From Mobula birostris (lineage: Eukaryota), in the NCBI RefSeq assembly GCF_030028105.1, contig NC_092376.1, forward strand, positions 116,620,230 through 116,684,229: DNA of 64,000 bases. Reading direction: 5' to 3'. This document shows, piece after piece, positions 15,190 to 50,839 of the stretch; positions within the stretch are counted from its first letter, which is position 1; the number at the start of each line of letters is the position of its first letter. The position numbers and the translations under genes are program-made. Under the pieces are notes generated by a model, which ran no database searches, was not told the DNA's origin, and worked only from the letters and a program-made list of their open reading frames with translations.

Positions 15190-15495
15190 TCTCAGGGGCA
15201 GAAGAGGGCAGTTCAGCCCATCGAGATCATATCATCTGCCCCAGATTCCCATCGGATACATCCCTCATATCTCCCTAGAAACTTGGCTCCCGCCATTGTC
15301 CTGCCGTTAATTTACACTAGCGGCTGATTACGTTGACCGATTAATCTACCAACCTGTTCTTGCGATCTCAGAGCACCGGAGGAAGCAAGGAAGGACATAT
15401 GATTTCCGCACACTAAGCAGAGGAGCTCCCGATGGAACCAGAATCACAGGAGATCTGTGGAAAATGTACTAGCAGCTACACCACTATGCCGCCAT
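15190..15495 (-). mobile_element. tRNA-derived SINE in the intron after IgV, copy 1
   Basis: ggcggcatagtggtgtagc head; orthologous to copy 2 SINE, which keeps a B box. Confidence 0.55.
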
Positions 15496-15532
15496 TTCTG
15501 ACACAGAATCATGTAATAATTGAAATCCTTAC

Positions 15533-15813
15533 CGTCCAAAACCCAGAGATTCAAATTCGTTTTCAGATCATTAAACGGTCCCGGAATCTGCACACGGCAG
15601 CAATACCAGCCGCTATCTTCTCTCTGTAGATCATTTATAGTGAGCGACACATCTCCTGCCGCAATTCTACCACCAAATTTATATCTCTGGGATGTTACAG
15701 AAGTTACTCTGTCTCCATTTGTTCTAATCAACCCGTGGCCACAGGCGCTAAAAGGACACTGTCCCCAAACCCCAGCACATCTCACTTTTTACATATGTTC
15801 CGACAGAATAGCG
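15533..15813 (-). pseudogene. TIM IgV unit B (5'-truncated) of copy 1
   Basis: Starts at RYSV with no acceptor; +1 frameshift at WG; 3' part open: QCPFSACGHGLIRTNG...QREDSGWYCCRVQIPGPFNDLK...VLD with GTAAGG donor. Confidence 0.9.
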
Positions 15814-15870
15814 GCTACACCACTATGCCGCCATTTCTGACACAGAATCATGTAATATTGAGCTGCTTAC

Positions 15871-16218
15871 CATCCAAAACCCGGAGATTCAAATTCGTTT
15901 TCAGATTATTAAACGGTCCCGGAATCTCCACACGGCAGCAATACCAGCCGCTACCTTATCTCTCTAGATCATTTATAGTGAGCGACACATCTCCTGCCGC
16001 AATTCTACCACCAAGACTATATTTCTGGGATGTTACGGAAGTTACTCTGTCTCCACTTGTTCTGATCAGTTCATCTCCACAGTTCATAACATCACACTGT
16101 CCCCTACCCCAGCACATCGCACTTTTGACATATTTTCGGACAGAATAGCGGCACGGCAGTGTGATCGACTCTCCCGTGACTCCTCGCACGTTTGTCCCAG
16201 AGACGAAGGCGACTCGAC
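15871..16218 (-). pseudogene. TIM/HAVCR-family (HAVCR1/TIMD4-like) IgV exon A, copy 1, with premature stop
   Basis: tttcAG acceptor, GTAAG donor, 348 nt phase 1-1; ITLPCRYSV..MCWGRGQCDVMNC..GDVSLTINDLER*GSGWYCCRVEIPGPFNNLK; six-Cys TIM signature; TAA at 15956-15958. Confidence 0.92.
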
Positions 16219-16931
16219 CTGAAACAAACCAGGGAAAGAAAGTTACAGATGGCGCTGAATGAGATGATCAGACGGGTGAGCCCACAGTTTAGAAACCTGC
16301 CCGAGCAACGGCAATGTGATCCATTTTACCTGCCGGGCGGCATCTGAAGAATATTACGAAAATTCAAAGGGATGTGGATACTATTAGGTATTCCCGACAT
16401 TCTGAAACACCAATCCCTCAGCTGACCCGGAGTAGGATGTGGTGATCGACCAGCATTTCTGTAGTTTTGACAAAACCGATGGTCCTGCGGTATCATTTCA
16501 GAGAGCTGTTCTGTCACTAACACAGAAATAAGCAGGGAGGGACGAAGATCCGATTGTGATTTCGCGGATTGAAATCATTCTCCCCTCTTGCCATTTTGGA
16601 TCTGTGATTCATTTTCCCACTCACATACCCACTGTGCTCCCAAGCCTTCACCGCAATGATCGGGGATATTCCGAGCTTTGGTCTTGTTTCATGGTCCATT
16701 CAGATCAGCACTGATCAGTCCTGCAAGTTTACTCACCCCGTCAGTTCACCCCGCGCCCCCCCCCGGCCATTGATCAACAAAAACCGGCAGCGCCGGGCAT
16801 CACTCAGGGTCTCGGCTGTATCCCTCCCGGGTCCCTCACTCAAACACAGTCTCCGTCTCAACTACTGCGTCCAAGAAGTTAAAACAACAAGATTGAACAA
16901 AATAATTCAATTCCTGCTTTCAGAAACGTAC

Positions 16932-25372: not shown

Positions 25373-25410
25373 ATTTCTGACACAGAATCATGTAATATTG
25401 AGCTGCTTAT

Positions 25411-25691
25411 CGTCCAAAACCAGGAGATTCAAATTAGTTTTCAAATCATTATGTCGTCCCGGAATCCGCACACGGCAGCAATACCAGCCGCTATCTTCTC
25501 TCTGTAGATCATTTATAGTGAGCGACACATCTCCTGCCGCAATTCTACCACCAAGTTTATATCTCTGGGATGTTACAGAAGTTACTCTGTCTCCATTTGT
25601 TCTAATCAACCCGTGGCCACAGGCGCTAAAAGGACACTGTCCCCAAACCCCAGCACATCTCACTTTTTACATATGTTCCGACAGAATAGCG
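25411..25691 (-). pseudogene. TIM IgV unit B' (5'-truncated, donor GT>AT) of copy 2
   Basis: Same frameshift as unit B; 3' part QREDSGWYCCRVRIPGRHNDLK; ends GAC G|ATAAG. Confidence 0.9.
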
Positions 25692-25748
25692 GCTACACCA
25701 CTATGCCGCCATTTCTGACACAGAATCATGTAATATTGAGCTGCTTAC

Positions 25749-26029
25749 CGTCCAAAACCCGGAGATTCAAATTCGTTTTCAGATTATTAAACGGTCCCGG
25801 AATCTCCACACGGCAGCAATACCAGCCGCTACCTTATCTCTGTAGATCATTTATAGTGAGCGACACATCTCCTGCCGCAATTCTACCACCAAGTTTATAT
25901 CTCTGGGATGTTACAGAAGTTACTCTGTCTCCATTTGTTCTAATCAACCCGTGGCCACAGGCGCTAAAAGGACACTGTCCCCAAACCCCAGCACATCTCA
26001 CTTTTTACATATGTTCCGACAGAATAGCG
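25749..26029 (-). pseudogene. Chimeric TIM IgV unit (B 5' half plus A 3' half) of copy 2
   Basis: CPFSAC-type 5' half with frameshift joined to TAA (25834-25836) and EIPGPFNNLK 3' half. Confidence 0.88.
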
Positions 26030-26086
26030 GCTACACCACTATGCCGCCATTTCTGACACAGAATCATGTAATATTGAGCTGCTTAC

Positions 26087-26434
26087 CGTCCAAAACCCGG
26101 AGATTCAAATTCGTTTTCAGATTATTAAACGGTCCCGGAATCTCCACACGGCAGCAATACCAGCCGCTACCTTATCTCTGTAGATCATTTATAGTGAGCG
26201 ACACATCTCCTGCCGCAATTCTACCACCAAGTTTATATCTCTGGGATGTTACAGAAGTTACTCTGTCTCCATTTGTTCTAATCAGTTCATCTCCACAGTT
26301 CATAACACCACACTGTCCCCGGCCCCAGCACATCTCACTTTTTACATATTTTCGGACAGAATAGCGGCACGGCAGTGTGATCGACTGTCCCGTGACTCCT
26401 CGCACGTTTGTCCCAGAGACGAAGGCGACTCGAC
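26087..26434 (-). pseudogene. TIM/HAVCR-family IgV exon A', copy 2, with premature stop
   Basis: 348 nt, AG/GT intact, MCWGRGQCGVMNC...DLQR*GSGWYCCRVEIPGPFNNLK; TAA at 26172-26174. Confidence 0.92.
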
Positions 26435-27126
26435 CTGAAACAATCCAGGAAAGAAAGTTACAGATGGCGCTGAATGAGATGATCAGACGGGTGTGTCCAC
26501 AGTTTAGAAACTTGCCCGAGCAACGGGAATGTGATCCATTTTACCTGCCGGGCGGCATCTGAGGAATATTACGGAAAATTTCTATGTATTCAAGGGGATG
26601 TGGATATTATTAGGTATTCCTGACATCCTGAAACACCCACCCCTCAGCTGACCCGGAATACGATGTGGTGATCGCATTGCATTTCTGTAGTTTTGACACA
26701 ACTGATAGTCATGCGGTAACATTTCAGAGAGCTGTTCAGTCACTGACACAGAAACATGCAGGAAAGGTACGAAGATCCGATTGTGATCTCGAGTATTGAA
26801 ATCATTGTCCTCTCTTGCCATTTTGGATCTGGGATTCATTTTCCCACTCACATACCTACTGTGCTCCCAAACCTTCACCGCAATGATCAGGGGATATTCC
26901 GAGCTTTGGTCTTGTTTCATGGTCCATTCAGATCAGCAATGATCAGTCCTCCAAGTTCACTCACCCCGTCAGTTCACCTCCACCACCACCTCCGCCCCAT
27001 TAATATCTCGGCTGTACCCTCCTGGGTCCCTCACTCACACACAGACTCCATCTCAATTATTGCATCCAGGAGGTTAAAGCAACAAGACTGAACAAGCTAA
27101 TTCGATTCCTGCTTTCAGAAACGTAC

Positions 27127-31817: not shown

Positions 31818-32590
31818 CACCCAGCAGACAGTGAGCACCTTGATTCTGTGTGGGTTAGGTTGATTAGGTTGTCAGAATAGCCTCCACATATTGACATGAT
31901 GACTGTTCCTAAGAAGCATGTCTCTCGCCTTTGTGACAAACTCAGGTGATTAAAACATGCATCCAAGATTCAATCTTCCTCTCTGTACACTACAGCACAG
32001 TCACACAATGCGGTTCTTCAGGTCATCTTTAAAGTTACTGTAACCCAGGTTAGTTAGACCCAAAGATGCAATGTTAGAAAGCTTCACTTGTGGAGGGGTG
32101 TAAATGAGGTTTACTGAATTCAAAAAAGAAAGAACTTGAAAAAATAGCTATATGAGTACAAGATGTGGCTGACGCAGGCGTAGACAAACGATAGAAACGT
32201 GGCAAACTAGAAACTAACTAAAGGTATAAACTGCTAAAAGTTGAATTACTAGTTAATATCTCTACCCTACTTATTGGAACTCCTCAGGGTGAAACTCCGG
32301 GAGGAGAGACGATATTGATAAAACATTTATTGAAGTTTTGGCTATAATGAGCACCGGCTCTAGTGAGACAATGTCAGCAGAGAGTAGAGTCCAAGATCTC
32401 TACCGTGTGACAGGAAATTAGTTCTGAAAATCATTGACTTGTGGGGGTTTGCCTTATTCTGACTGTCGAAATTTGCTTCCGTTGTGATTAGTTAGTTTAG
32501 AAAGAGCAGGATCTTTTCCCATTGGATAACTGCCTGGTGTCCAATTTCAAATATCCTGGGTATATACAATTGCACATGGAAGAGGCTTTC

Positions 32591-34060
32591 AAGTCAAGTT
32601 AAGTCACTTTTTATTGTCATTTCGATTGTAACTACTGGTACAGTACACAGTAAAAACGAGACAACGTTTTTCAGGACCATGGTGCTACATGAAACAATAC
32701 AAAAACTACACTGAAGTACATAAGACAACACAAACACTACACTAGTCTACAGACCTACCCCGGACTGCATAAAGTGCACAAAACAGTGCAGACATTACAA
32801 TAAATATTAACAAGACAATAGGCACAGTAGAGGGCAGTAGGTTGGTGTCAGTCCAGGCTCTGGGTATTGAGGAGTCTGATGGCTTGGAGGAAGAAATTGT
32901 TACATAGTCTGGTCATCAGAGCCAGAATGCTTCAGTGCCTTTTGCCAGATGGCAGGAGGGAGAAGAGTTTGTATGAGGGGTGCGTGGGGCCCTTCATAAT
33001 GCTGTTTGCTTTGCGGATGCAGTGTGTAGTATAAATGTCTGTAATGGCGGGAAGAGAGACCCCAATGCTCTTCCCAGCTGACCTCACTATCCGCTGCAGG
33101 GTCTTGCGATTCAAGATGGTGCAATTTCCAAACCAGACAGTGATGTAGCTGCTCAGGATGCTCTCAATACAACCTCTGTAGGATGTGGTGAGGATGGTGG
33201 GGTGGGAGATGGACTTTTCTCAGCCTTCACAGAAAGTAGAGATGCTGCTGGGCGTTCTTTGCTATGGAGCTGGTATTGAGGGACCAGGTGAGATTCTCCA
33301 CCAGGTGAACACCAAGGAATTTGGTGCTCTTAACGATCTCTACGGAAGAGTTGTCAATGCTCAGTGGAGAGTGGTTGCTCCATGTCCTCCTGAAGTCAAC
33401 AACCATCTCTTTTGTTTTGTTCACATTCGGAGACAGGTTGTTGGCTGTGCACCAGTCCGTTAGCTATTGCACCTCCTCTCTGTATGCTGAATCATCGTTC
33501 TTGCTGATGAGACCCACCACGGCCATGTCATTGGCGAACTTGATGATGTGATTCGAGCTGTGTGTTGCAGCACTATCGTGGGTCAGCAGAGTGAACAGCA
33601 GTGGACTGAGCACACAGCCTTGGGGGGCCCCCGTGCTCAGTGTGATGGTGTTGGAGATGCTGCTTCTGACCCGGACTGACTGAGGTCTCCCAGTCAGGAA
33701 GTCTAGGATCCAGTTGCAGAGGGAGGAGTTCAGACCCAGTAGGCTCAGCTTTCCAATCAGTTTCTGAGGCATGATTGTGTTGAATGCTGAAATGAAGTCT
33801 ATCAACAGCATTCGAACGTACGTGTCTTTTTTGTCCAGGTGGAGGGTGATGGCAATGGCGTTGTCTGTTGAACGATTGGGATGGTACAGGAACTGCAGTG
33901 GGCCCAATGAGGCGGGCAGCAGGGTCTTGATGTGCCTCATGACGAGCCTCTCGAAATACTTCATGATGATGGATGTGAGTGCAATGGGACGGTAATCGTT
34001 GAGGCAGGACACTGAAGACTTCTTCGGCACGGGGTTGATGGTGGTGGAGTTGAAGCAAGT
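32591..34060 (-). mobile_element. Rex1/Babar LINE inserted in the ERV 5' LTR
   Basis: ORF 33464-34030 [37 protein letters not shown]; (ttgac)-like tail at left; empty site in 3' LTR at ~39677. Confidence 0.92.
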
Positions 34061-34301
34061 TCTCTCTTCATCCTTTGTTTAAGGCAAGGATGCACATGAC
34101 GATTAGGAAGGTATGTTCTGCACGTAATTTTAACTAAGTATGTTTGTTGAGTAGTCAGCTTTATAATATCTGTAACTCGGGGAACATGAATGTTTGGTCA
34201 AATTTTTATTATTTGTAAATAACTAATTAATATATCCATTCAAAGTCAGTGTATTTTCTGTCTTACTTTCTGGACTCATATACCTGATATAATATTAAAC
34301 T

Positions 34302-34319
34302 TGGCACTGCAAGCAGAGT
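34302..34319 (+). promoter_or_regulatory. Putative primer-binding site (tRNA-Ser-like)
   Basis: TGGCACTGCAAGCAGAGT directly after the 5' LTR; resembles the complement of tRNA-Ser 3' ends as recalled, not verified. Confidence 0.5.
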
Positions 34320-35102
34320 ATGGCTTTTTGAGCAGAAATACATTTCTTTAAGAGGTTATTTAAAAGAGATGACTCTCCATTTGAGAGATGCAGAGACCAG
34401 GGTGGACAAATAATAGTGCAGGGTTTGGAAGTCTTGCTAACCTGCTGATGGGTTATGGATGCCAGTAAATCGGTCAGACCAGTTAGATTTCACTGGGGTT
34501 GAAATAGGACATCATATTTTTTCTATACTTAAATCATTGGGTTTTCCCAGGAGGAAAGAGAGCCGGCGGGATGCTTTCTGTCTTTTTGCAGCAATAGTAA
34601 GGCATCAGCATAAAATAATAGCGAGTCTAAAGAATGAATTGGAAGGTCTCAGTCAGTGTTGTATTATTCTGAGTGAGTCACTATTGGTGGCTCACAGTGG
34701 GCTGTGAAGTTAGAAGATATGAATACACAGATAGCCTGCTGGCTAATAAAAGAATTTCAAGAGGGCCTGAAGGGCCAACTGGGAACCTGTACTTTTAAGG
34801 CTTGAGCCATGTTGAGATAGGGCGATGATCCTACTGTGGGTCTGGGAGATGGCGATGTCTGGATGGATGATGAAAATGAGGGGGAGAGAGAGTAGAGTGG
34901 ACCCCTCCGTTTAATCCTCGAAATGATCGCCCTCTCCCTTTTGTGTCCAAAACAGTACAGGCCAGGCCAGTAATTACGAGTTCCAACACCCGCCGTGGGG
35001 GTGGGGGCATCAATCTGCAGCTTCTTCCTCTCAAGAAGGGGAGGGGAAGCAGGCTCAGGAATGTGTGGGGGCAGTGTAAAGGACACCTTTGAGACAACAG
35101 AG

Positions 35103-35720
35103 CTCAGACAATACTCTGCTAAGGAATTGGCGAGTTTAAGGACAGGTACAAATTGTTGAGGTAATGGGGTGGGGGGTGAGTACCGGAGTGTTTCTATCTA
35201 ATACACAGATGGGTGCCTCAGGGAGACAATTGTCCCAACACGCCATCAATAATGTCCTGAGATCACTGCTTGCTTCCCTTGAGCTTAATGCATCACTATG
35301 GATTTGGGTTCTGGCAGGAGTTAAACTGAGGTATCTACTCTTACCAAATGGAATTCAAAGCCCCAAGCAGAATGGAGCATGGTAGAGAATGGTGCTAAAG
35401 TTCTATGTCAGTAGCCTCTTATCACAGAAATATGATAGTTGGAACCCACCAGAGGACAGTGGAGTAACTTCTGGAATGGTGAGGCACATGGTAATGGAGG
35501 CAGTTTTTCCAGTTCAAGGAGTAGCTGTTGGTCATCCTGTAAGTACAGTGATTCAATCATTACAAGGACTAGAGAATGTAGAACAGGGTGCACGTATCCA
35601 GGTTAGATAAGCAGATGGGGAGTGGGAGATCTTGCATATTCCATAAAGAAATGTTTTTAGCATTGTTTAAAGCTGAGTTCCAGAGGAGCAGGTAAATGGC
35701 GAGTGCAAAGTGGAGGAAGT
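35103..35720 (+). pseudogene. Class III (ERV-L/ERV-S-like) gag remnant
   Basis: LRQYSAKELASLR; NASLWIWVLAGVKLRYL; QAEWSMVENGAKVL; WNPPEDSGVT; HKEMFLALFKAE, in the order of ERV-L gag motifs; stops and frameshifts. Confidence 0.65.
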
Positions 35721-35933
35721 TCTGTATGGAAAAGCGAAAAAGGGAGAATGTTGAGGGGGAAGGGTCTTTCTTCAAGTTCTCTGCAGATAAGGGTTCTTTT
35801 TGTCATCTGCCAGTTTCCTCGCCTTGCATTCAGGGTTCCCTGCTAATGATCACCAGCAGCAGCAGTCCAGGGATGGTTAATATATTCACATCCCATTGTT
35901 GTAGGGAGGGGGTGGTTGGTGGATTCACAACCC

Positions 35934-35935
<2 letters not shown>

Positions 35936-35970
<35 letters not shown>

Positions 35971-35971
35971 A

Positions 35972-36020
<49 letters not shown>
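35936..36020. repeat. (TG)n microsatellite, interrupted
   Basis: About 42 dinucleotide units with one gcatgc interruption. Confidence 0.98.
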
Positions 36021-36021
<1 letters not shown>

Positions 36022-36969
36022 GACTTTGACTTTAAGAGACTCTGGTCCCACCCAGTTGCTTTTTCCTAATCAGTTGTTCTCCAATAAGTGCTACTTCTCT
36101 GAATTAACTGTCTGGTTTAAGTTTTTGCAGTTCTATAGGAAGTGTTAAAGAAGATGAGTACAATCCAGATTTTGTGATTTATGTTTTGTGTTTAATCCAT
36201 TTGTTTCTTGTTTTCTAAACCTGTTACATGTTTATTGTGTTTTAATATGGTAATTAATTTAGGGATGTCTCATTACACACTGGCCATATGAAATGTGAGT
36301 TGAAACTTGGTGGGAGTTTGGGTAACTTTATTCCGGATATGAGATGCCCACATTTCCAAGGGAATTGAGCATTTGTAGTTTTATTGTTTTTGGGTTTGTT
36401 AAATATCCAGTGACTAATCAGGAGCGAGTGTATTTCTATCTCCCTGCTTTACAGAATGGCAAAGTGGTGATCGTTGATTTGTGGTGGGAGATCCCGTTAT
36501 ACATTCCTGTGATTAGCGTTTGAATTTGAACACTGGACCAATGGGTCAGATTGTTAAATTTGTATGAAAAATCCTTTCAACATTGCAGAAGGATGCCACT
36601 GATATCGCTCCCTTCGATGACAAAGAAAAGCCTGTTGGGAGAAATTATCTAGCTTCTCGGGTTTTGGCATTCTGTTTTGGGGGAGCAGAGAGGGAGTAGT
36701 CTATCCCAACCACCCTCAACCCACAGAATGGTAACAGGCTTAAGGGACCTGAGCTTTGATAGTCCTGGTGGTGTGTGCGCTTTAAGGGCTGAAATTTCCC
36801 TACATACCATTTGTTTAATTGGAATGCCCTGACACTTAATGTGATCTTCCCAGCTGACAGAGTGTGAGTGTGGGTGTTGAGTACAGGTACAACGTGCAAG
36901 GTGGATGGCAAGTGTGAGCAGGAACAGTATCCTGGGATGACTGTGTCCATGCCAGATGGTGTTTTGAGG

Positions 36970-37490
36970 CTGGGCACTTGTTGGAAGCTGAATGGCACTT
37001 ACTGGATACGCAGTTCCTAGGCCTACCCGTTGTTTCCACAGGGTGGTGCGGTTGATATGTGGTGGGGGATGTATGCCACCCTAGTGCCCGGGATGAACAC
37101 TTGCCTACGCCGGTTGGTAAGAGGACTATTTCAAAAGAAGGAAGATTTTGAGTAATAGCCTTTCTCTGCATGGTACAGCCAGACTGTCACAGGGACTGAT
37201 TTTGATGGCCTTGGATTACCTGCTCACAAAGGAAAGTGTCACTTGTACGGTTATTGGTTAAGGATGCTGGATCTACATTTCTGGTGGGTCAGGTAAAATC
37301 TCTCACCTGGTTGATCAAATTAAATGGGAGACTAGCTCATTGGCTATTACACTCTAGGGTAGGGCTGGTGGCCTCTTGGAGTAGAGGGAGGCTAGTGGAC
37401 ACTATAGTATACCGGGAGGTGACTGTTGGGTTTACAGTACTGGGTATTGTACTCTCGTGTTTTATGTATAACTTAGTTGGGAGTTCATGA
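36970..37490 (+). pseudogene. Gamma-type env remnant (SU C-terminus, ISD, CX6CC, TM anchor)
   Basis: CWKLNGTYWI..AYPLFP; from 37205 MALDYLLTKESVTCTVIG*GCWIYISGGSGKISHLVDQIK; then VTVGFTVLGIVLSCFMY in another frame. Confidence 0.85.
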
Positions 37491-37591
37491 GAGTCATACT
37501 AGTCTGAGAGTTGGATCATCACTTTCGCTTCTTCCGTGTCCTGTGCAGTGTGCCTTATTCTAATTGTTGAAAGTTACTTCCATTATGATTA

Positions 37592-39561
37592 AGCAACACA
37601 CACAAAATGCTGGTGGAATGCAGCAGGCCAGGCAGCATCTATTGGAAGAAGTACAATTGACGTTTCGGATTGAGACCCTTCGTCAGGACTAACGGAAAAA
37701 ATATACAGTAAGAGATTTGAAAGTGGGAGGGGAGGGGGAGACCCGAAATGATAGGAGAAGACAGGAGGGGGAGGGATGAAGCCAAGAGCTGGGAAGTTGA
37801 TTGGCAAAAGGAATACAAGTCTGGAGAAGGGGGAATATCATTGGATGGAAGGCCTTGGAAGAAAGAAAGGGGGATGGGAGCACCAGAGGAAGATGGAGAA
37901 CAGGCAAGGAGTTATTGTGAGAGGGAAAGAGAGAAAAAAGAAAGATAGATAGATAAATAAATAAACAAATAAATAAATAAAGGATGGGGTAAGAAGGGCA
38001 GGTGGGGCATTAACGGAAGTTAGAGAAATCAATGTTCATGCCATCAGGTTGGAGGCTACCTAGATGGAATAGAAAGTGTTGTTCCTCCAACCTGAGTGTG
38101 GTTTCATCTCGATAGTAGAGGAGGCCATAGATTAACATATCAGAATAGGAATGGGACATGGGATTAAAACGTGTGGCCACTGAGAGATCCTGTTTTCTCT
38201 GGCGGATAGAGCGTATCTGTTCTTCGAAGCGGTCTCCCAATCTGCGTCGGTCTTGCCAATATATAGAAGTCCACACCAGGTGCACCGGACACAGTATATC
38301 ACACCAGCAGACTCACAGGTGAACTGTCGCATCACCTGGACTGTCTGGGGCCCTGAATGGTGGTGAGGGAGGAAGTGTAAGGGCAGGTGTAGCACTTGTT
38401 CCGCTTAGGTGGATAAGTACCAGGAGGGAGATCATTGGGAAGGGATGCGGGGGACGAATGGACAAGGGAGTTGCGTGGGGAGCAATCCCTGCAGAAAGCA
38501 GAAAGTGGGGTGGGGGGAGGGAAAGATGTGCTTGGTGGTGGGATCCCATTGGAGATGACGGAAGTTGTGGAGAATTATATGTTGGATCCGGAGGCTGGTG
38601 GGGTGGTAGGTGAGGACAAGAAGAATCCTATCCCTAGTGGGGTGGCGGGAGGATGGGATGAGAGCAGATGTGCGTGAAATGGGAGAGATGCGTTCGAGGG
38701 CAGAGTTGATGGTGGAGGAAGGGAAGCCCCTTTCTTTAAAAAAGGAGGACATCTCCTTCATCCTTGAATGAAAAGCCTCATTCTGAGAGCAGATGTGGCG
38801 GAGACGGAGAAATTGAGAGAAGGGGATGGCATTTTTACAAGTGACAGAGTGGGAAGAGGAATAGTCCAGGTAGCTGTGAGAGTCCATGGGCTTATCATAG
38901 ACATCAGTAGATAAGCTGTCTCCAGAGACAGAGACAGAGAGATCAAGGAAGGGGAAGAAGATATCGGAAATGGACCAGGTAAATTTGAGGGCAGGGTGGA
39001 AGTTGGAGGCAAAGTTGATGAAGTCAACGAACTCAGCATGCTTGCAGGAAGCAGCACCAATGCAGTCATCGATGTAGCGAAGGAAAAGTGGGGGACGGAT
39101 ACCAGTATAGGCTTAGAACATGGACTGTTCCACAAAGCCAACAAAAAGGCAGGCATAGCTGGGACCCATATGGCTGCCAATGGCTAGACCTTTAGTTTGA
39201 AGGAAGTGGGAGGAGCCAAAGGAGAAATTATTAAGAGTAAGGACCAATTCCGCTAGATGGAGGAGAGTGGTGGTAGAGGAGAACTAGTTGGGTCTGGAAT
39301 CCACAGGTAAATGGAGAGCTTTGAGACCTTCCTGGTGGGGGATGGAGGTATATAGGGATTGGACATCCATGGTGAAAGTAAGACGATGGGGGTCAGGGAA
39401 CTTGAAATCATTGAAAATGTCCAGAGCATGAGAAATGTCACGAACATTGGTGGGAAGGGATTGAACAAGGGTGGATAAAACAGTGTCGAGGTATGCAGAA
39501 ATAAGTTCGGTGGAGTAGGAGCAAACTGAAACAATGGGTCTACCTGGACAGACAGGGATGC
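37592..39561 (-). mobile_element. Penelope-like element (partial RT, GIY-YIG, pLTR) inserted in the ERV 3' LTR
   Basis: GRPIVS..TMDVQSLYTSIPH (RT); SYLDYSSSH; GIY-YIG at 38010-38395; diverged 14-bp TSD 37578-37591 / 39562-39575. Confidence 0.92.
37655..37690 (-). ncRNA. Hammerhead motif, probably impaired
   Basis: AGUC-CUGACGA...GAAAC-GUC core intact but stem I partner is AAUU and stem II is mismatched. Confidence 0.45.
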
Positions 39562-41579
39562 CTCCATTGCGATTAGTTAGTTTAGGAGCTGCAGCATCTT
39601 TTCCCATTGGATAACTGCCTGGTGGTCCAGTTTCAAATATCCTGGGTATATAAAATTGCACATGGAAGAGGCTTTCCCTCTTCTTCCTTTGTTTAAGGCA
39701 AGGATGCACATGATGATTGGGAAGGTATGCTCTGCACATACTTTTAACTAAGTCTGTTTGTCAAATATCCATGTGTTTGTTGGGATTTGTAGTGTCTGTG
39801 ACTGGGGAACATGAATATTTGGTCGTATTTTTACTGTTTGTAAATAAATGATTAAAATACCTATTCAAGGTCAGTGCAACGCCTGTCTCACTTGCCGGAC
39901 CTGCGAATCTGATTCAACATTGCAAGCAAACCAAGGGACTTGGTCGAGTTATTTTTTGTGTAATGTATTGTGAATGGACTTTCAGTGGATGACCCACCAT
40001 TTCATCCAATGAGCCAAGAAACAGGATGGCGAGCCACCCAAGATCGAGGAACCAGCGCGGGTCTGAATGCTTCAAGATGTGGAGGATTTAATATGGTTGG
40101 ATGTATAAGCTTATTTTTCATTCGGAGGATCTGATTTGATTTTATGGAAGAACTAATTATTTTTGCAAGAACTTTGATCAGTGACTGAATGAGATTTACT
40201 TAGTTTAAAAGTTGTGATGTTGGAGAATTTGTTGTGAAAAGAGTTAAGCTGTATCGATATATATTTGGGGTTGAATTTGAATTTGTAGATATACTGACCT
40301 GAACTGAAACTGAGGTTAACCATAATACTTGAAAATAGGAATTCAATTAGCTTCCTAACTAACTAGGGATAAATAAAAAGGCAAGTGTTAGTCTGTAAAC
40401 CTTTGAATAGAGAATAACATTAAATCTAATTAGAGAAATGGAGTAACAAAGGATATTCTAATGAATCTCACTGATTCTTACTAAAAAGAAATTTGGTTTC
40501 CATTTGATATCTGAGATTTGGAAGCTAAAATGCAATGTTGAAATTTTGAATTATTCTTTCTCATGTAAATATTTTATATATATTGCTATTTTCTATAAAT
40601 AAAATTTACCCCCAGAAGCGTGTGTTTTCTATTCACTGCCTCCTTTCGATACCTAGAGCTTCTGATGGCCCACTAGCACCTGGTGTAGGTCTATGCAATT
40701 TGATTTTTCTCAGTCACACAAGATAAAACAAGTGCTACACAGGTGTTACATTATTGTCAGTGTCCTATTGTACAACCGCACTATCATAACCATTTACATT
40801 CGTCCAATGCAATTCCCCTCAGTTCCTCAGGATCACAGTCATGCCTCAGTTTTCTTCCTACAAAGAGTCATATTTTTCTGTGGTCTCATCCCTCCTGATA
40901 AGGCACATCAAATTCAACAAGTCAGGTATGATTACTCAAATAGAAGACAAAAATATAACGCAGAATAAGGGATGCATCTCAAGATCCACTCCAGAATCTA
41001 ACCAGGATGAATTATCTCAGTACTCCCAACATCATCACATCATTTTGTGGTTTATTAACCCAAATTAAGCCAATGATTCTGAAATCATTCAGTTCCTTCA
41101 GTAACGCCATTAAGTCTTTTAAGACATATATCATTCATTGATAAATAAGTACATCAAAAATAATACATGCACATAATCCAAAAACTCTGTCGAAAATACT
41201 AAAATAGAAAATACCATTTTCAAAAAGGCAATCCAGGCTGAAGCATTGTGAATTTCAATAAACAGTTCTGATATGACATTCTGCTATTTTTCCATCACAA
41301 TTCATATAAGTGAGGGGCAATTTTCAGTTACTTTCCTGGCATATATCAATTCTCCTTCAACGCCAATTTATAGATGGAGCAATATGCTCAGACATTGTAA
41401 TCTGTGGTGTTGCCATCTCTCCAGAGAAGGTCAGTTTTATTTGTAGTTCCAAAAAATGCTTTCATGCCGTGAAGTTGGAGCGCATCAGCCATGTACAAGT
41501 AGTTTAATGGTGTTTGTACATTTCTTCGGCTTACATTTGTAAATGCCTGTTGAAGTCTGTATTGATCAGATGAAAACCA

Positions 41580-50204: not shown

Positions 50205-50312
50205 GGGAACCGAGGTGACCTTCTTATATGGAGCATCGGAGCTCAGGGTTGAACCTGGGTCACAGGATCTGTGGGACAGTTACAGAAACTGCTACACTGC
50301 TGCACCACCATT
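50205..50312 (-). mobile_element. tRNA-derived SINE head after IgV of copy 3
   Basis: ggtggtgcagcagtgtagc head; B box GGTTCAACCC at 50246-50255; same intronic position as in copies 1 and 2. Confidence 0.6.
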
Positions 50313-50347
50313 GATGAGACAGATACATGGAATATTGAACTGCTTGC

Positions 50348-50606
50348 TGTCCAAAACCAGAAGATTCAAGTTCATTTTCCGATCATTAAACAGTCCAAGA
50401 ATTTCCACACGGCAGCAATACCAGCCACTAACTCCTCCCTGTCGATCACTTGTAGTGTGTGATACATCTCCATCCCCGATTCTACCACCAAGATGATAGC
50501 CTTGGGATGTCACAGAAGTTACTCTGTCTCCATTCATTCTAACCAGTAACAAGCCAATGTCACAAATAGTACTGTCTGGTACGAGAAGAGGGAGCACAAC
50601 CGCAGT
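50348..50606 (-). pseudogene. TIM IgV exon of copy 3, internally deleted and frameshifted
   Basis: tttcAG acceptor; 259 nt versus 348 (B-strand Cys and C-strand Trp lost); ...GDGDVS..SGWYCCRVEILGLFNDRK..VLD; donor changed to GC. Confidence 0.85.
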
Positions 50607-50839
50607 CTGAAATCTTGTCCCTACACTGAGAAACAGATCGAATTACCAGCAGGGCAGGATCTGAGGAATGCTATAGAAAATTTCTACCTATTCACTGGGA
50701 TGTTAGCTGCTTACACCTCCCTCACTTCTCAAATTTGTCCTCAGACAGGTGGTGGCAATCAGCTTTCTTCAGTCCCGGCCTTTCCATAGCAGACTTGATA
50801 CAGTTGACTGTCTTGTGGTGCCATTTCAGTTGCTAATCT

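Follow-up and report, generated by a model that had tools for sequence, protein, structure and literature searches.

The 64,000-nucleotide stretch of the Mobula birostris genome analysed here and referred to as the window (contig NC_092376.1, positions 116,620,230 to 116,684,229) carries on its plus strand, at 32435-39924, an endogenous retrovirus (ERV) whose two long terminal repeats (LTRs) are each broken by a long interspersed nuclear element (LINE). The gene order of this provirus is LTR-gag-spacer-env-LTR, with an internal region of 3.2 kb (34302-37536) and a total length of about 4.1 kb in uninterrupted copies. An earlier note, made from the letters of the window alone, had placed at 32440-39919 a hidden provirus with two LTRs around some 3.2 kb of internal sequence, nested insertions, a serine primer, a class III-type gag and no pol; its bounds lie a few bases inside those found here, and each of these features is borne out by the results below. 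The copy itself is an inert fossil, an old insertion that decayed neutrally. The family to which it belongs appears to have lost pol throughout and carries a dead env, and selection on gag after the loss of pol is a stronger result than the presence of such a lineage.

The 5' LTR begins with TG and is split into 32435-32590 and 34060-34299, while the 3' LTR consists of a first part of 54 bases (37537-37590) and a second part ending in CA (39555-39924). Self-comparison of the window matches 32474-32590 to 39559-39676 at 91% and 34060-34275 to 39674-39900 at 78%, and the aligned LTR pair is 83.8% identical with a Kimura two-parameter (K2P) distance of 0.186 over 389 sites. Within the 5' LTR lies a minus-strand non-LTR retroelement (32591-34059; PF00078, E 2.6e-21), which we take to be of the Rex1 type, and contigs from other sequencing runs contain the empty site, linking 32588 to about 34062 without this insert. 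The minus-strand element within the 3' LTR (37591-39554) is delimited by its open reading frames (ORFs), dispersed copies and junctions and is presumably of the Penelope type, as judged from its reverse transcriptase (RT) and GIY-YIG-like motifs. The target-site duplication (TSD) of 5 bp, at 32430-32434 on the left and 39925-39929 on the right, agrees in three of five bases here and in four of five in the local duplicate L001. The primer-binding site (PBS) at 34302-34319 matches the 3' end plus CCA of the host tRNA-Ser(CGA/TGA) in 15 of 18 bases, as scored with tRNA-Ser genes found and typed in the M. birostris genome itself, and the polypurine tract (PPT), positioned at 37520-37536, is decayed in this copy and plain in others. 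Paired TG...CA LTRs, PBS, PPT and TSD thus identify an ERV provirus; a minus-strand reading of the element was dropped, since the PBS and the motifs lie on the plus strand. The start of gag follows only about 20 nt 3' of the PBS (34302-34340), in the pol-less family and in its pol-bearing relatives alike, so that the 5' leader is nearly absent, with hardly any room for a packaging signal.

A decayed class III-type gag of about 500 codons occupies 34338-35900, with approximate ends, as defined by profile matches, tblastn and selection counts. Natural proteins align by tblastn to 34397-35607, overlapping frames without a majority-stop column run from 34364 to about 35900, and single natural copies read through gag zones in one frame, though the copies are full of indels. 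A Gag profile built from 15 natural pieces matches 43 proteins with E ≤0.001, headed by a 'Friend virus susceptibility protein 1-like' protein of Narcine bancroftii (E 3e-13) and followed by frog and bird Gag or Gag-Pol proteins. The 'Fv1-like' name of the Narcine protein is an automatic database label; Fv1 itself originated from an ERV-L gag (PMC8922424). A CCHC zinc knuckle is present in none of 243 gag stretches, and ERV-L/Fv1-type homology together with the missing knuckle marks this Gag as class III-type (clade Huo). Pfam identified neither a gag nor an env family in the ORFs of the window or in frames with stops read as X, and in family copies nothing but TLV_coat at E 0.03. A single-sequence word search with Gag gave no match among 3262 candidates, whereas the profile search did find homologues, and the profile had no match among PDB sequences. 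In the ESM Atlas, retrotransposon-gag-like clusters were reached at 0.91-0.93, which is a lead only. The capsid region, modelled from one copy with two stops read as X (predicted local distance difference test score, pLDDT, 84.8), gives weak fold matches to the capsid-like C-terminal domain of MOAP1 (Z 5.6, root-mean-square deviation 3.5, 91 aligned), the Arc C-lobe (Z 5.4, deviation 4.1, 77 aligned), HERV-K Gag (Z 4.7, deviation 5.0, 162 aligned) and a toad ERV Gag (TM-score 0.50, E 0.24); these matches are enriched in retroelement capsids, yet mixed with unrelated bundles.

Between gag and env lies a non-coding spacer (35901-36455) with no pol-probe match, which contains a TG run at 35936-36019 and ends, immediately 5' of env, in a splice-acceptor-like site, both read directly from the sequence. 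Its T-rich portion of about 450 bp (35901-36350) sits where pro-pol would be; it is common to the family and to the relative L078 and has no match in the pol-bearing relatives, and it may serve as an export or packaging element. An F-x-D-D string in the spacer was considered as an RT motif and rejected, having neither RT context nor pol-probe support. Six pol probes gave no match in the window. With probes taken from pol-bearing relatives and a stingray Gag-Pol, class III pol in sense between gag and env was found at none of 86 family loci, while 10 of 10 pol-bearing controls scored. Weak probe matches at three of the 86 loci (22-33% identity) are antisense or outside the element. Among the 52 loci with both a gag end and an env start, 48 have the gag-env spacing of the window to within 400 bp, and the remaining four show no pol match either. 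A pol hidden in long gag-to-TM loci was sought in five such loci, all of which held insertions. Pol is thus absent family-wide, which accords with the pol-deleted, non-autonomous form proposed in the earlier note.

The dead env at 36456-37490 consists of a surface subunit (SU) with a stop at its CXXC, a furin-like site, a short transmembrane subunit (TM), a CX6CC remnant and a membrane anchor. The TM piece of one copy, which aligns to 37136-37399 of the window, matches in the PDB filovirus GP2, syncytin-1, HERV-S71 Env and p15E of murine leukaemia virus (MLV) with E values from 1e-5 to 0.02; these matches, together with the full immunosuppressive domain (ISD) and CX6CC of the relatives L072 and L077, make the env gamma-type by descent, and the CXXC position in SU is as in the relatives. 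The gamma-type env with ISD that had been read in the window therefore stands as to its type, but of the ISD the family retains just the 3' half and the gene is dead family-wide. About 123 nt of TM, or 41 codons, are deleted, comprising the first heptad repeat together with the 5' part of the ISD up to its middle. The distance from anchor to anchor across it is at most 9 nt in 52 of 52 copies with both anchors (31 of 47 examined copies plus 21 of 40, the others being without an anchor), as against 132 nt in the relative L084, and the deleted segment is present in L076, L077, L079, L084 and L086. In class I fusion proteins that are without the first heptad-repeat helix, no fusion bundle would form. 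In addition, SU has shared stops at two columns, one of them, the CXXC column, in 45 of 57 copies and the other in 37 of 55. An open frame, the SU CXXC, a complete first heptad repeat and a complete ISD, as required of a functional gamma-type Env, are thus all wanting, even as most family copies still carry env; short forms devoid of env, such as L110 and L124, also occur. With the TM deletion in all scorable copies and the stops in most, env was already broken in the source element before the family spread.

Searches of the 4.0-Gb genome gave 1268 LTR, 415 gag and 632 env first-look candidates, of which 40 each were scored; such candidate counts are not copy numbers, and they suggest several hundred internal copies. 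In all, 86 family loci were fetched as best matches. LTR pairs are 82-89% identical (K2P 0.12-0.21) at 10 of the 18 two-LTR loci, the other eight being interrupted. Both ends could be located at 12 of these 18 loci, and there 42 of 60 TSD bases agree, with exact duplications in two; the PBS matches in at least 14 of 18 bases in 36 of the 63 copies that include the gag start. The 36 gag stretches placed in a tree form a star-like pattern (mean tip length 0.126). The copies lie scattered across many contigs and have two complete LTRs and 5-bp duplications that differ, and the family is also found in organisms B, D and E, on contigs from other sequencing runs.

L001 and L040 are segmental duplicates of the locus, lying within 200 kb of it at 93-95% identity with flanks in common, and were excluded from alignments and selection counts; L001 also carries both LINE insertions. 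The case that the repeats are only a host segmental duplication, which would have undone the proviral interpretation, did not hold in view of the LTR candidates across the genome, although these two local duplicates do exist. The surrounding region holds minus-strand immunoglobulin V-type (IgV) exons of TIM/HAVCR genes at 15447-16267, 25391-26540 and 50295-50642, which are tandem duplicates and partly fragmented (Pfam V-set; TIM-4 and TIM-1 in the PDB, E ~5e-22), and it also contains a repeat of 338 bp and a duplication of 9.9 kb. The provirus has been duplicated together with this TIM gene cluster region at least twice (L001, L040). One contig of organism D spans the flank-LTR junction (window 32246-32478) with 25 differences in 234 nt, and the insertion or a duplicate of it is likely older than the split from organism D, as far as a single contig with a partly repetitive flank indicates.

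Selection was assessed by counting variants per codon column with CpG columns excluded, which is not a tree-based codon model and involves small counts. In the main run, comprising 85 copies and a 15% frequency cut-off for shared variants, gag has 18 nonsynonymous and 28 synonymous shared variants, giving an omega of 0.28 (p=3e-5), with 0.22, 0.33 and 0.35 in its three successive thirds and 2.35 and 1.74 in the shifted frames. Rare gag variants have an omega of 1.07, and rare variants are close to 1 throughout. Shared env variants (18 nonsynonymous, 8 synonymous) give 0.96, and the spacer, at 1.61, shows no codon selection; gag and env differ with a Fisher p of 0.026. With purifying selection on shared gag variants and neutrality of those in env, it is likely that Gag was required by the source elements and Env was not, and the copies likely decayed neutrally once inserted, as far as can be read from the sequences.

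Three pol-bearing lineages were exposed by RT, Gag and integrase searches of the same genome. The old lineage has LTR pairs of 66-75% identity, about 60% DNA identity to the family, a pol that varies from nearly complete to missing, and up to 18 of 18 bases matching the primer. It comprises L076-L086 and L127-L146, among which L078 has the short TM of the family and L085 another partial TM deletion. The younger lineage, represented by L072 and L077, has the full gag-pro-pol-env order with the same primer type, PPT and LTR start as the family, and its one datable copy (L077) has an LTR pair of 92%. It also includes L073, L074, L083, L063 and L075, with partial pol deletions in several copies, and is related to P0062 of Hemitrygon akajei, to which the RT of L072 is 67% identical. 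The third lineage is distant and has a different primer site. Distant class III ERVs are L047, L054, L056 and L048-L051, with clusters on C17, C24 and C6:35.5-36.3 Mb, some of them amplified in segmental or tandem arrays; the primer site of L047 and L056 is presumably of the Ser type. L053 and L064-L066 constitute a long-branched RT clade of their own, with 39-45% identity to the probe. In a quick Gag-core tree of the 20 loci left after filtering for length and stops (midpoint root, SH-aLRT support), the family (91) joins the old lineage (87) and both join the younger one (96), whereas batoid database proteins branch with the distant lineage. The RTs of the relatives have their closest matches in proteins of rays, amphibians, teleosts, birds, lizards and bats, none of which has a class label; they score equally against MLV and foamy-type RT in the PDB, and IMG/VR contains no RT relative. 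No named HERV-S, ERV-L or SnRV sequence came up among the matches of the Gag profile search or of these RT searches. The search for related copies and a pol-containing partner, which the earlier note had advised, was thus answered in part, by 86 loci and pol-bearing relatives without a partner of matching age.

Taken together, this family is probably a pol-less class III-type LTR element with a broken env, which used its own Gag and borrowed Pol from related retroviruses while spreading in the germ line. Its ancestor would have been a class III virus with complete gag-pro-pol-env, from which pol and the function of env were lost. The family would have kept expressing Gag, with the protease, reverse transcriptase and integrase of a relative supplied in trans, and as the selection pattern hints, its Gag may co-assemble with the helper Gag-Pol and favour packaging of its own RNA. 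Reverse transcription would be primed by tRNA-Ser, and integration would leave the 5-bp duplications; the window copy was later struck by two LINE insertions and was duplicated with the TIM gene cluster. Complementation in trans is required because the retroviral ends and duplications show the use of an integrase that the element does not encode, and such complementation of defective ERVs is a described concept (PMC8922424, PMC3769647).

Several points weigh against this interpretation. The env comparison is based on 26 variants, and a first selection run with 44 copies and another cut-off was weaker, with an omega of 0.62 for gag (p=0.043), of 0.38 for its N-terminal part and 1.13 for the capsid part, env being at 1.15. 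The loci are best matches to pol-less queries and hence neither a random nor a complete sample. The capsid fold matches reach no Foldseek E <0.001 and a best Z of 5.6. The relatives stand at about 60% identity in DNA and 41-50% in the Gag core, a distance across which co-assembly with Gag-Pol would have to take place, and no age-matched helper was found, with family LTR pairs at 82-89% as against those of the old (66-75%) and the younger (92%) lineage.

The marginal outcome of that first run would fit a pure RNA parasite comparable to ETn, for which a helper supplied all proteins including Gag and the gag signal is a legacy of autonomous ancestors or noise. Internal branches are short, and thus shared variants are few, and a functional gag is by definition unnecessary in trans-complemented ERVs (PMC8922424). 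However, omega is low in each third of gag in the larger run, and gag is free of majority-stop columns over nearly its whole length, whereas env has shared stops; as one spacer and one TM deletion occur in all copies, the shared variants likely postdate the losses, and we regard this explanation as unlikely. The missing age-matched helper could also mean that the family had a pol-bearing master of its own, autonomous and carrying the same LTR but low in copy number, unsampled or lost, which was outgrown by its pol-less deletion derivative, and since only 40-150 candidates were scored per search, such a master could have been passed over. This resembles HERV-H, with its internal-deletion derivative. 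Yet the five long gag-to-TM loci held insertions rather than pol, and RT, integrase and pol-DNA searches reached only more distant lineages, so that we give this explanation less weight still; it is the same mechanism in kind and differs in the identity of the helper alone. Spread by reinfection with an own Env, by host duplication or by LINE-driven retroposition, for which the retention of env in most copies and the two local duplicates might speak, is very improbable and already contradicted for the family by family-wide env lesions and neutral env variants on the one hand and by dispersed copies that have both LTRs in full and differing 5-bp duplications on the other.

An element that keeps its own Gag and borrows Pol has its nearest parallel in the MaLRs (mammalian apparent LTR retrotransposons), elements that are pol-less and non-autonomous with a single ORF homologous to ERV-L gag and for which intracellular spread is inferred (PMC11359688, PMC3769647). 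Like ERVL-MaLR, the ray family has no pol, a kept gag-derived ORF, a class III origin, a high copy number and far more LTRs than internal copies. MaLRs are, however, mammalian, env-less and described as being without a PBS (PMC3769647), whereas the ray family has preserved a tRNA-Ser PBS together with a dead env of 1 kb, and its nearest relatives are elements with pol in its own genome. Lacking neither env nor PBS and not being of eutherian origin, it works like a MaLR and is not one, and because its closest relatives are those pol-bearing elements, its origin is independent.

A second likeness, at the level of features, is to HERV-S/ERV-S (clade Huo), with which the earlier note had compared the provirus, in the serine primer, the Gag without zinc knuckle and the gamma-type env. 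HERV-S itself has such a Gag and a gamma-type env, and the pol-bearing relatives in the ray genome show the full HERV-S/ERV-S-like pattern. The family differs in having no pol and a dead env; its primer is of the Ser CGA/TGA type, unlike the primer site of the distant L047 and L056. HERV-S belongs to class III (PMC3265301), and a shared PBS does not mean kinship (PMC8922424). Gag is homologous over most of its length to XP_069772250 ('Fv1-like') and XP_069792282 of N. bancroftii and to P0062 and P0098 of H. akajei, but these represent sister lineages on a separate branch with about 31-34% identity in the capsid region, and P0062 and P0098 carry pol.

The earlier note had expected that such a lineage in a cartilaginous fish would inform deep retrovirus evolution, which was overstated, as class III and gamma-type-Env ERVs of anamniotes are already published (PMC11089739; bioRxiv 10.1101/2021.11.23.469661). 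Chondrichthyan ERV RTs fall mostly in clade III (PMC11089739), gamma-type-Env ERVs are reported in six cartilaginous fish, and a class III Pol combined with a gamma-type Env is known from an anamniote, for example in ERV-SA.a-Ppe, the class III group being called SnRV-related (bioRxiv 10.1101/2021.11.23.469661). The compared text parts on the ERV-SA.a-Ppe group describe no family without pol whose env is dead and whose gag is selected, while PMC6114882, PMC3482500 and two batoid genome preprints hold, in the parts compared, repeat totals or methods only. For cartilaginous fish, no account of a gag-env family without pol was found in the literature within scope, which left out most subscription journals as well as Repbase and Dfam. 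Class III ERVs in such fish, and the pairing of class III Pol with gamma-type Env in anamniotes, are thus already known; what is new here is the family-wide pol loss, the dead env and the selected gag.

It is evenly balanced whether in this family the MaLR lifestyle arose a second time, independently, and is seen here at a half-way stage, with pol shed, the dead env retained and Gag selected while parasitising the Pol of viruses with about 45% capsid identity. As part of that same proposition, and with equal reserve, the graded relatives in one genome, full, partly pol-deleted and pol-less, would be the record of the transition. A MaLR-type 'Gag-only' origin is hard to study in mammals, where env and PBS are gone and the link to retroviruses is faint, but the ancestry of the ray family is still legible in its env vestige, its primer site and its pol-bearing sister lineages within a single genome, where selection can be followed for each gene separately, with gag constrained and env not. 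Families of hundreds of copies such as this one are overlooked by RT-based ERV surveys of cartilaginous fish. The pattern suggests that a defective element profits from its own Gag, and Gag-only parasites may arise more than once from class III viruses.

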